Origin: Shigella phage sb2
Reading direction: 5' to 3' (one strand)
Sequence record: PQ666540
Length of the DNA stretch: 64,000 nt
Shown here: positions 55,695 to 58,600 of the stretch, piece by piece
Numbering within the stretch: position 1 is the first letter of the stretch
How the letters are laid out: every line of letters starts with the position of its first letter
Made by a program: the position numbers and the translations under genes
Notes under the pieces: generated by a model
What the model was told of the DNA's origin: nothing
The model's input: the letters and a program-made list of their open reading frames with translations, nothing else
The model's database searches: none

Positions 55695-58600
55695 ATGGCC
55701 GAGATTAAAAGAAAGTTCAGAGCAGAAGATGGTCTGGACGCAGGTGGCGATAAAATAATCAACGTAGCTTTAGCTGATCGTACCGTAGGAACTGACGGTG
55801 TTAACGTTGATTACCTAATTCAAGAAAACACAGTTCAACAATACGATCCAACTCGTGGATATTTAAAAGATTTTGTAATCATTTATGATAACCGCTTTTG
55901 GGCTGCTATAAATGATATTCCAAAACCGGCAGGAGCTTTTAATAGCGTGCGCTGGAGAGCATTACGTACTGATGCAAACTGGACAACTGTTTCATCAGGA
56001 CCTTATCAATTAAAATCAGGTGAATCAATTTCAGTTGATACTGCAGCTGGTAATGACATTACATTTACTTTACCAACTTCTCCAATTGATGGAGATACTA
56101 TCGTTCTTCAAGATATTGGTGGAAAACCCGGAGTTAATCAAGTTTTAATTGTAGCTCCAGTGCAAAGCATTGTAAATTTTAGAGGTGAACAAGTACGTTC
56201 AGTACTAATGACACATCCAAAATCACAGATAGTTTTAATTTTTAGTAATCGTCTGTGGCAAATGTATGTGGCTGATTATAGCAGAGAAGCGGTAGTTGTG
56301 ACGCCAGCAAGTCTCTACCAGGCGCAGTCAAACGATTTTATCGTGCGCAGATTTACTTCTGCTGCACCGATAAATATTAAACTTCCGAGATTTGCTAATC
56401 ATGGCGATATTATTAATTTTGTTGATTTAGATAAATTAAATCCTCTTTATCATACAATTGTCACGACATATGATGAAACAACTTCAGTACAAGAAGTTGG
56501 AACTCATTCTATTGAAGGCCGTACATCTATTGATGGTTTCTTGATGTATGATGATAATGAGAAATTATGGAGATTATTTGACGGGGACAGTAAAGCACGT
56601 TTACGTATCATAACAACTAATTCAAACATTCGTCCAAATGAAGAAGTTATGGTATTTGGTGCGAATAATGGAACAACTCAAACAATTGAGCTTCAGCTTC
56701 CAACTAATATTTCTGTTGGTGATACTGTTAAAATTTCCATGAATTACATGAGAAAAGGACAAACAGTTAAAATCAAAGCTGCCGGTGAAGATAAAATTGC
56801 TTCTTCAGTTCAATTGCTGCAATTCCCAAAACGTTCAGAGTATCCACCTGAAGCTGAATGGGTAACAGTCCAAGAATTAGTTTTTAACGGTGAAACTAAT
56901 TATGTTCCAGTTTTACAACTTGCTTATATAGAAGATTCTGATGGAAAATACTGGGTTGTACAACAAAACGTTCCAACCGTAGAAAGAGTTGATTCTTTAA
57001 ACGATTCTACTAGAGCAAGATTAGGCGTGATTGCTTTAGCTACACAAGCGCAAGCTAATGTCGATTTAGAAAATTCTCCGCAAAAAGAATTAGCAATTAC
57101 TCCAGAAACATTAGCTAACCGTACTGCTACAGAAACTCGTAGAGGTATCGCAAGAATAGCAACCACTGCTCAAGTGAATCAGAACACCACATTCTCTTTT
57201 GCTGATGATATTATCATCACTCCTAAAAAGCTGAATGAAAGAACTGCTACAGAAACTCGTAGAGGTGTTGCTGAAATTGCTACGCAACAGGAAACTAATG
57301 CAGGTACTGATGATACTACAATCATCACTCCTAAAAAGCTTCAAGCTCGTCAGGGTTCTGAATCATTATCTGGTATTGTAACCTTTGTATCTACTGCAGG
57401 AGCTACTCCAGCTTCTAGTCGTGAATTAAATGGTACAAACGTTTATAATAAAAACACTAATAATTTAGTTGTTTCGCCTAAAGCTCTAGATCAGTATAAA
57501 GCTACTCCAACACAACAAGGTGCAGTAATTTTAGCAGTTGAAAGTGAAGTAATTGCTGGACAAAGCCAAGAAGGATGGGCAAATGCGGTTGTAACGCCAG
57601 AAACGTTACATAAAAAGACATCAACCGATGGAAGAATTGGTTTAATTGAAATTGCTACGCAAAGTGAAGTTAATACAGGAACTGATTATACTCGTGCAGT
57701 CACTCCTAAAACTTTAAATGACCGTAAAGCAACTGAAAGTTTAAGTGGTATAGCTGAAATTGCTACACAAGTTGAATTCGACGCAGGCGTCGACGATACT
57801 CGTATCTCTACACCATTAAAAATTAAAACTAGATTTGATAGTACTGATCGTACTTCTGTTGTTGCTCTATCTGGATTAGTTGAATCAGGAACTCTCTGGG
57901 ACCATTATACCCTTAATATTCTTGAAGCAAATGAGACACAGCGTGGTACACTTCGTGTAGCTACACAAGTTGAAGCTGCTGCAGGAACATTAGATAATGT
58001 TTTAATAACTCCTAAAAAGCTTTTAGGTACTAAATCTACTGAAGCACAGGAAGGCGTTATTAAAGTTGCAACCCAGTCTGAAACTGTTACTGGAACGTCA
58101 GCAAATACTGCTGTATCTCCAAAAAATTTAAAATGGATTGTGCAGAGTGAACCTACTTGGGCAGCAACTACTGCGATAAGAGGCTTTGTTAAAACTTCAT
58201 CTGGTTCAATTACATTCGTTGGTAATGATACAGTTGGTTCAACACAGTCGTTAGAATTATAAGAGAAAAATATCTATTCAGTATAACCATATGAATTAAA
58301 ACGTGTATTATCAAATTATTTTCCGTTAAAAGCAAAAGCCGCTGACACAAATTTATTAGATGGTCTAGATTCATCTCAATTCATTCGTAGGGATATTGCG
58401 CAGACGGTTAATGGTTCACTAACCTTAACTCAACAAACGAATCTGAGTGCCCCTCTTGTATCATCTAGTACTGCTACGTTTGGTGGATCAGTTTCGGCAA
58501 ATAGTACACTAACTATTTCTAATACTGGAACGGCAACTCAATTGATTTTTGAGAAAGGACCTCAATCTGGAACGAACCCAGCGCAGACGATGACTGTCAA

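Follow-up and report, generated by a model that had tools for sequence, protein, structure and literature searches.

The frame of gene 34, which encodes the proximal subunit of the long tail fibre, is interrupted by two in-frame ochre codons in the stretch of DNA analysed here (64,000 nucleotides, referred to as the window). This raises the question of whether the phage itself carries the stops or whether they arose in the making of the sequence. Genes 34 and 18 are both required for infectious T4-type particles, and gene 18, the tail sheath gene, also holds two in-frame stops, as the preliminary description had pointed out (Table 1). The window belongs to a T4-like Shigella phage, 97–98% identical to pSs-1. 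Very probably, the living phage lacks both TAA codons of gene 34, which would be errors of the deposited or assembled sequence.

Table 1. Positions in the window of genes 34 and 18, their internal stops and the associated patch of substitutions.
Feature	Position	Strand	Length	Sequence characteristics	Evidence
Gene 18 (tail sheath)	3739..5718	+		Two in-frame stops, of G>T/C>A type like the gene 34 stops	
Gene 18, stop 1	4120–4122	+		TAA; GAA in relatives, G>T; same TAA in sb1	
Gene 18, stop 2	5560–5562	+		TGA (opal, not ochre); TGC in all relatives, C>A	
Gene 34 (long-tail-fibre proximal subunit)	55695..59564	+	1290 codons including terminal stop	Two in-frame TAA inside	Translation; collinearity with T4, sb4 and ime09
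Gene 34, first in-frame TAA (codon 856)	58260..58262	+		C>A at 58262; TAC or TAT (Tyr) in relatives	
Gene 34, second in-frame TAA (codon 864)	58284..58286	+		C>A at 58285; TCA, TCT or TCG (Ser) in relatives	
Patch of seven G:C>T:A transversions	58262..58322	+	61 nt		Alignment, cluster test, reversion test

The gene 34 frame and its two internal stops

Gene 34 opens with an ATG at 55695 and closes with a TAA at 59562–59564, and translation of the whole frame gave no third internal stop. Around the stops the translation reads ...STQSLEL*EKNIYSV*PYELKRVLSNYF..., and the list of open reading frames cuts the gene in two, 55695..58262 (855 aa) and 58542..59564. At a genomic GC content of ca. 36%, runs of 855, 7 and 425 open codons far exceed chance, which identifies one gene interrupted twice. 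The preliminary description had likewise read the region as a single continuous fibre gene with two in-frame TAA codons and the length of its T4 counterpart, and comparison with T4 bears this out. The frame aligns gap-free with T4 gene 34 (NC_000866 150809–154678; structures 5NXF, 5NXH and 9X3R) at 91.4% nucleotide identity, and both genes measure 3870 nt, corresponding in T4 to 1289 aa plus the stop. Furthermore, the gene is collinear with and equal in length to gene 34 of sb4 and ime09, and the pSs-1 and sb4 annotations, mapped onto the window, place it within the order rnh-34-35-36-37.

The expectation that Tyr and Ser codons had originally occupied the two sites also held in an alignment that included T4 gene 34 (Table 1); TAC, TAT and TCA, all found in relatives, are each one substitution from TAA. 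As deposited, gp34 is not encoded by one uninterrupted frame, the two in-frame TAA codons standing within it. Most likely, this is a T4-type gp34 whose real gene runs uninterrupted through 1289 codons with Tyr856 and Ser864 in place. The full-length protein would contain ...LELYEKNSYAVSPYELNR... where the deposited sequence has stops, and the phage almost certainly makes normal full-length gp34.

A 61-nt patch of transversions around the stops

Both stops lie within a patch of seven transversions, which alignment places at 58262, 58273, 58278, 58285, 58301, 58311 and 58322. Their respective effects, Y856*, S860I, A862S, S864*, N869K, A873S and L876F, set the window gene apart from that of T4 and are absent from all other relatives examined as well. 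The five missense changes fall on residues also conserved in T4, and at all seven sites the same residue is encoded by pSs-1, sb1, sb3, sb4, ime09 and T4. The seven changes convert 37% of the 19 G:C pairs of the patch and leave every A:T site intact; alignment to relatives revealed no other private change between 58262 and 58322. Read along one strand, the order is C>A, G>T, G>T, C>A, C>A, G>T, G>T. When changes were placed at random, none of 20,000 placements reached six or more in 61 nt.

Reversion of exactly these seven bases renders positions 58230–58350 (121 nt) 100.0% identical to OR062527.1, an independent phage that carries the underlying haplotype intact. Unreverted, the same segment finds its best match among ca. 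650 matching phage records at 94.2%, again in OR062527.1. Six T4-like contigs from IMG/VR all read Y...S at the two stop sites, and the gene 34 stop alleles are absent from IMG/VR. Conservation at the patch was judged by DNA comparison, as a protein search with 181 aa of gp34 returned only four fragmentary hits and was uninformative. The orthologous pSs-1 segment matches the gp34 structures 9x3r, 5nxh and 5nxf (E-values 1e-103 to 3e-96) over residues 780–959, with T4 residues 853–881 almost identical.

The substitution spectrum of the window and its sibling records

Substitutions of the G>T/C>A class make up 43 of the 450 private substitutions in the window, compared with 17 of 370 in pSs-1. 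Private transitions in the window are 85% synonymous (168 synonymous versus 29 non-synonymous) and 83% of them fall at third codon positions. Among private coding G>T/C>A changes, only 7 are synonymous versus 28 non-synonymous or nonsense (20% synonymous), and they are distributed 14:10:11 over the codon positions; the pSs-1 control for this test of codon position and selection is small (n = 15). Some 30 further changes of this class are spread over other genes of the window, for example a W>L exchange in the ligase. The G:C>T:A process in the window is blind to reading frame and selection and acts at a low level throughout. A sequence-context hotspot as its cause was considered and rejected, given that no trinucleotide context was consistently enriched for G>T/C>A and that the two changes are strand-symmetric.

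That four nonsense codons should fall by chance into a pair of essential genes had been considered very unlikely, an argument that does not survive this spectrum. All four stops in the window, two each in gp18 and gp34, are G>T or C>A changes, and a frame-blind hit of this class in the coding sequences of the window is computed to create a stop 11.8% of the time. With approximately 30–40 such hits in the window, 3.5–4.7 stops are therefore predicted. In addition, the two gp34 stops count as one event because both lie inside one 61-nt patch, and three stop events are computed to fall in two genes or fewer with a chance of ca. 6%.

Four phages from one lake have been described (PMC11993411), among them sb1 (PQ666539, ADG1), sb3 (PQ666541, CDR3) and sb4 (PQ666542, TMC4); their Twist libraries were PCR-amplified and run on a NovaSeq 6000, with SKESA used for assembly and Prokka for annotation. 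The window probably comes from this study too, as its phage AKR2 (PQ666540), the only one of the four that the phage collection lacks; in GC content the window ranks among the siblings just as AKR2 does in the published values. Exact matches to the truncated gp34 and to gp35 of the window were not found in the sequence collections, nor did an exact 40-mer scan of IMG/VR give any hit. The phages of this study were isolated and propagated on Shigella, yet T4-type particles are not infectious without genes 34 and 18. The siblings sb1, sb3 and sb4 are pSs-1-like Tequatroviruses that share with the window the coordinate origin and the G>T/C>A excess. Over the same 64 kb, 27 of 82 genes are disrupted in sb1, 31 of 82 in sb4 and 9 of 82 in sb3, with 33, 46 and 9 in-frame stops, respectively, and none in pSs-1. 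The broken genes include those for the major capsid protein, the terminase large subunit, gp32, DNA ligase and gp34, gene 34 being annotated in pieces in both sb1 and sb3. The load of the window is much lower, with stops in 2 genes versus 9–31 disrupted genes in the siblings, none of which shares its gene 34 stops.

The three siblings display the same process at a very high level. Private G>T/C>A substitutions number 288 in sb1 and 158 in sb4, and 32 of the 33 sb1 stops derive from this class. In coding sequence, such changes yield 11.0% stops and 11.8% synonymous codons in sb1, and 16.4% and 7.1% in sb4, against a frame-blind expectation of 11.8% and 8.9%. Patches like that of the window occur in sb4 (8 hits within 127 nt, 6 within 73 nt), where 26–28% of G:C pairs are converted; A>T and T>A are also in excess in sb4.

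Origin of the stops

T-even DNA, with its glucosylated hydroxymethylcytosine, is resistant to enzymatic library preparation, which would make a low sequencing depth plausible. Damaged template purines (8-oxoG, possibly also abasic sites) may have been copied as T during library PCR, and wherever effective depth or library complexity was low, the miscopied molecules could have set the SKESA consensus in read-sized patches. Artefacts of the C>A/G>T type, caused by oxidised guanine during sample preparation, have been reported (Costello et al., 2013; PMC3616734), and the changes in the window resemble them in being exclusively G:C>T:A, blind to frame and selection and strongly variable between samples of one study. 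The likeness is incomplete, however. The reported artefacts have a low allele fraction and show up in a small percentage of reads; the changes in the window reached the consensus, so that an additional bottleneck or low depth has to be assumed. The window and sb4 also differ in their dense patches of 60–130 nt, in which G>T and C>A occur together on one strand; as one damaged strand should give only G>T or only C>A, the mixed patch of the window needs several rounds of copying or another technical cause. Furthermore, the library of PMC11993411 was sheared enzymatically, not acoustically. Two-colour chemistry, with G>T and C>A as a spurious ‘green’ signal, was dropped as a candidate, as the documented NovaSeq artefact is T>G (or A>C), not G>T (PMC13218037), and per-read errors should not reach the consensus.

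Among the three origins offered by the preliminary description, systematic sequence errors are upheld, while a suppressor-dependent genome and an engineered one are not. The stops are almost certainly an artefact of data quality with low biological interest, not a real feature; their significance lies with the records. Frame-blind G:C>T:A errors, from dozens to hundreds per record, are present in at least three ‘complete genomes’ in GenBank (PQ666539, PQ666541 and PQ666542) and probably in the source of the window, splitting essential genes and inflating gene counts (285 and 291 proteins versus ca. 255). Such errors will contaminate work on pangenomes, amino-acid usage, host range (tail fibres) and pseudogenes, and also any model trained on these records. 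Affected records can be flagged by a reusable test, in which the spectrum of private variants is compared with a clean relative, stop and synonymous fractions are set against the frame-blind expectation and the suspect bases are reverted to see if a known haplotype is restored.

Biological alternatives

Stops within an otherwise intact gene could be tolerated by programmed recoding, the ribosomes reading through them or hopping in the style of T4 gene 60, with take-off at TTA 58257–58259 and landing at the in-frame TTA 58296–58298. The matching TTA 39 nt downstream and a stop immediately after the potential take-off codon would suit such a bypass, but TTA is common in the AT-rich gene 34 (in frame also at 58308 and 58326), which renders the match uninformative. 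Moreover, both stops are absent from all relatives (ca. 650 phage records and six IMG/VR contigs), while the segment to be skipped, YEKNSYAVSPYE, is conserved through to T4 and forms part of a solved fibre structure. The RNA folds no better than its shuffles (minimum free energy −5.3 kcal/mol versus a mean of −8.0, z = +1.15), and both alternative frames are closed. Three of the seven patch changes lie beyond the putative landing site, and one mutational process covers them all without recoding. On these sequence comparisons, recoding appears effectively refuted by its lack of conservation and retains next to no probability. A conditional-lethal phage, deliberately made or selected with nonsense codons in genes 34 and 18 through engineering or a suppressor host, is very unlikely. 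Both genes are classic targets of T4 conditional-lethal work, and the gp34 stops, both TAA and each one substitution from the codon of close relatives, recall the single-substitution nonsense codons of T4 amber and ochre mutants in these same two virion genes. Those classical mutants, however, carry isolated single nonsense changes in a laboratory T4 background and are rescued by one suppressor. Here the background is that of a pSs-1-like Shigella phage from the environment, whose gene 34 shares only 91% identity with that of T4; its stops are mixed, three TAA and one TGA, and a single suppressor would not rescue the TGA. The gp34 stops are accompanied in 61 nt by five gratuitous missense changes of the same class, and the signature extends genome-wide through the 30 or so changes elsewhere in the window. 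No tRNA gene was found in the 64-kb window by ARAGORN, and PMC11993411 describes neither mutagenesis nor a suppressor host.

The stops might also be real mutations present in the extracted DNA. The DNA would then have come from a T4-like genome that was defective, or from most of the lysate, that had undergone a local oxidative G:C>T:A burst and was kept by complementation and recombination with co-infecting relatives in a mixed, incompletely purified stock. G:C>T:A is the in vivo signature of 8-oxoG as well, and the lake phages form, on sequence comparison, a mosaic of shared blocks. The four closely related phages came from one lake sample (PMC11993411). Against this, fixation at consensus level would be required for 33–46 nonsense codons per 64 kb in sb1 and sb4, including those in the major capsid, terminase and gp32 genes. 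The proportions of stop and synonymous changes fit a process without any selection, and no complemented lineage could gain such a load of a single type with its transitions staying 85% synonymous. Real mutation in a defective genome is accordingly rated highly improbable. For the patch itself, a localised burst that altered roughly one in three G:C pairs within 61 nt, for instance through clusters of oxidative damage close to the replication origin region of gene 34, in a fibre-defective genome kept by complementation among closely related co-infecting phages, is rated as highly improbable too, the conversion having spared every A:T pair.

The alleles that the window has in common with sb1, the E>* change in gp18 at 4120 and a W>L exchange in the portal protein, speak for the real-mutation alternative in that they could reflect shared molecules. 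They sit on backgrounds that differ within tens of bases. Coincidence alone is estimated to produce ca. 0.6 such common sites, and the gp18 stop shared with sb1 may be due to chance, shared reads or shared descent being the alternatives.

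The Seven-Change Patch in Gene 34

The phage behind the window is a Tequatrovirus, and its sequence runs collinear with that of Shigella phage pSs-1 (97.4–98.0% identity over the first 50 kb, with window position 1 at approximately pSs-1 96,028), and megablast against 50,697 phage records returned no identical record among them. In the gene order rnh-34-35-36-37, gene 34 has its best match (95.7%) in Shigella phage sb4 (PQ666542), one of three sibling records together with sb1 (PQ666539) and sb3 (PQ666541). Translation of its 1290-codon frame gives two in-frame TAA codons and no further internal stop, and because of these a mechanical ORF list splits the gene into an 855-residue segment (55695..58262) and a second, downstream one that begins at 58542. 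A preliminary description, made from the sequence alone, had placed both codons and the frame accurately. It had also given the length of gp34 correctly, T4 gene 34 (NC_000866, 150809-154678) being 3870 nt as in the window and aligning gap-free at 91.4% identity, and the alignment it proposed gives the predicted Tyr at codon 856 and Ser at codon 864. Codon 856 reads TAC in pSs-1, sb4, sb1 and ime09 or TAT in sb3 and T4, while codon 864 reads TCA, TCT or TCG in relatives, so that each stop goes back to a C>A change.

Coordinates of the affected features in the window
Feature	Position	Strand	Details
Gene 18 (tail sheath)	3739-5718	+	two in-frame stops
Gene 18 stop 1	4120-4122		TAA; GAA in relatives; G>T at 4120
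Gene 18 stop 2	5560-5562		TGA; TGC in all relatives; C>A at 5562
Gene 34 frame	55695-59564		from ATG; 1290 codons
Gene 34 stop 1	58260-58262		TAA; TAC>TAA at 58262
Gene 34 stop 2	58284-58286		TAA; TCA>TAA at 58285
G>T/C>A patch sites, gene 34 (alignment)	58262, 58273, 58278, 58285, 58301, 58311, 58322		Y856*, S860I, A862S, S864*, N869K, A873S, L876F

Both stops lie in a patch of 61 nt (58262-58322) in which the changes affect 7 of 19 G:C pairs and leave every A:T pair intact, the alignment placing no other private change among the seven sites. At all seven positions T4 has the residue of the close relatives despite 91% identity, and solved gp34 structures (9x3r, 5nxh, 5nxf) include the segment. 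Six of six T4-like contigs in IMG/VR read Y-E-K-N-S/N-Y-A-V-S here, and the nonsense alleles are absent from IMG/VR. In 20,000 random placements of the 88 majority-polarised G>T/C>A differences of the window on G/C sites, not one brought at least six into a span of 61 nt. The seven bases were then reverted within window 58230-58350, and the phage collection was queried with both versions. As it stands, the 121-mer reached at best 94.2% among approximately 650 matching records, whereas after reversion it matched Escherichia phage vB_EcoM_11B_SA_NWU (OR062527.1), also the source of the 94.2% match, at 100.0%; the patch thus consists of a natural haplotype already on record and seven unique G:C>T:A changes.

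By T4 collinearity, the origin oriG (ori34; T4 152947) maps to window ~57833 within gene 34, approximately 430 nt upstream of the patch, and no evidence was found connecting the two. Assemblies of Enterococcus faecalis and Salmonella enterica include three partial gp34-like proteins, which lie on contigs of 335–878 bp and are most likely T4-like phage contamination.

Gene 18 and Substitutions Across the Window

Private substitutions were taken from an alignment of the window and the corresponding 64 kb in pSs-1, sb4, sb1 and sb3. G>T and C>A together make up 9.6% of those in the window (43/450), compared with 4.6% in pSs-1 (17/370). The window's private transitions resemble variation that was inherited and passed through selection (168 synonymous versus 29 non-synonymous, 83% in the third codon position), whereas its private G>T/C>A changes are 7 synonymous versus 28 non-synonymous or nonsense, with codon positions at 14:10:11. 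Taken alone the difference lends support but does not decide the matter, because the pSs-1 control is small (n = 15, 5 synonymous).

With 82 pSs-1 genes mapped onto the window, in-frame stops occur only in gp18 and gp34, two in each, the gene 18 pair having been correctly reported beforehand, and all four are G>T or C>A changes. The preliminary description held four stops in two essential genes to be very unlikely by chance, a view the numbers do not bear out. Some 30–40 coding G>T/C>A hits that are frame-blind, that is, occurring without regard to reading frame or selection, predict 3.5–4.7 stops. The two gp34 stops count as one event, since both fall within one patch, and 6.4% of simulations put three events into two genes or fewer, given the length of gp34 and gp18 and the many codons in them that can turn into stops. 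The apparent confinement of the stops to two essential virion genes is thus no more than a mild coincidence and no signal of design.

The gp18 TAA at 4120 is identical in sb1, where the annotation splits the sheath gene in two, and the two records have a few further radical G>T/C>A alleles in common, among them portal W>L (7093) and gp15 R>S. Their backgrounds around the common alleles diverge within 30–180 nt, and no sequence-context hotspot for G>T/C>A was found. Chance alone would give roughly 0.6 coincident sites (~300 sb1 hits x ~50 window hits / ~23,000 G/C sites), so that one or two are unremarkable; cross-sample read sharing is a possible source of these alleles.

Sibling Assemblies and the Origin of the Changes

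The records derive from four Shigella phages of one lake in Kolkata, ADG1 (PQ666539), AKR2 (PQ666540, the window), CDR3 (PQ666541) and TMC4 (PQ666542), with DNA extracted by CTAB, Twist kit libraries made by enzymatic fragmentation and PCR, NovaSeq 6000 sequencing, SKESA de novo assembly and Prokka annotation (PMC11993411). AKR2 has 254 proteins, the fewest of the four, and 35.49% GC, in a published GC rank of ADG1 < TMC4 < AKR2 < CDR3 (PMC11993411), which the shared alignment columns match (sb1 < sb4 < window < sb3).

Many essential genes are annotated in pieces in sb1, sb3 and sb4. In the same 64 kb, 27, 9 and 31 of 82 genes, respectively, are disrupted, with 33, 9 and 46 in-frame stops, against none of either in pSs-1. 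Among the broken genes are nrdA, gp32, gp34 and those for DNA ligase, the terminase large subunit and the major capsid protein. Nearly all of this damage is due to frame-blind G>T/C>A change, with 288 such private changes in sb1 and 158 in sb4; the same class accounts for 32 of the 33 stops in sb1, and sb4 has an additional A>T/T>A excess. A frame-blind process is expected to yield 11.8% stops and 8.9% synonymous changes per coding hit, and the observed fractions are 11.0% and 11.8% in sb1 and 16.4% and 7.1% in sb4. The sibling process was therefore unfiltered by selection, which is incompatible with genomes of plaque-forming phages. Two sb4 patches (8 hits in 127 nt and 6 in 73 nt, with 26–28% of G:C pairs converted) have the same anatomy as that in gp34, G>T and C>A being mixed on one strand. 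The sibling records look unreliable for gene-level analyses, and the worth of the finding is that it flags seriously error-laden public phage records.

Recoding across the gene 34 stops is rejected, as none of the relatives examined has the stops, the RNA shows no advantage in folding over shuffled sequence (z = +1.15), neither of the other frames is open and three of the seven changes lie past any plausible landing codon. The preliminary description had offered a suppressor-dependent or engineered genome, or else systematic sequence errors; the former is contradicted by collateral missense damage, the mix of TAA and TGA, the non-T4 background and the lack of a tRNA in the window, and only the latter is supported. 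A real defective genome kept by complementation in a mixed stock is very improbable; it leaves the siblings unexplained and is not needed. The patch changes are of one chemical class, frame-blind, clustered at approximately read length, unique to the window's record and the same in kind as those devastating the sibling assemblies. We infer that the gene 34 changes are technical in origin; the two stops are almost certainly not a real biological feature.

Oxidation of template guanine during sample preparation is documented to cause C>A/G>T artefacts (PMC3616734), and damage of this kind could have produced the errors. A single damaged strand, however, would not yield the mixture of G>T and C>A found on one strand of the patch. 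The known NovaSeq two-colour artefact is T>G, not G>T (PMC13218037). Very low effective depth or library complexity at the error sites would be needed for such errors to reach the consensus, which is plausible for glucosyl-hydroxymethylcytosine DNA in enzymatic, PCR-based library preparation. The A>T/T>A excess of sb4 would be consistent with adenine insertion opposite damaged or lost purines in general.

Other Differences in the Window

Besides the portal and gp15 alleles, conserved genes carry radical G>T/C>A changes in DNA ligase (W>L), gp51 (D>Y) and RNA ligase 1 (P>Q), and the five changes, at 32692, 21938, 44309, 7093 and 681, are probably more errors of the same process. Only one gene of the window is disrupted by a private indel, a 2-nt deletion at ~35132, which frameshifts a small hypothetical ORF (34854-35310, minus strand) homologous to pSs1_00212. 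A private 81-nt non-coding insertion between small early genes (51502-51582), not present in pSs-1, sb1, sb3 or sb4, could be either a naturally occurring indel or a feature of the assembly. At 40624-40753, in a small ORF homologous to pSs1_00226, one 2-nt length difference from pSs-1 is common to the window, sb4 and sb1, and the odd one out is probably the pSs-1 annotation or sequence, not the window. Lastly, the 32-kb record MG010123.1, named 'Staphylococcus phage SAJK-IND', matches the T4-like window 1-25000 at 97.2% identity in a region that includes the genes for tail sheath and major head protein, among others, and appears to be mislabelled or a contaminant.
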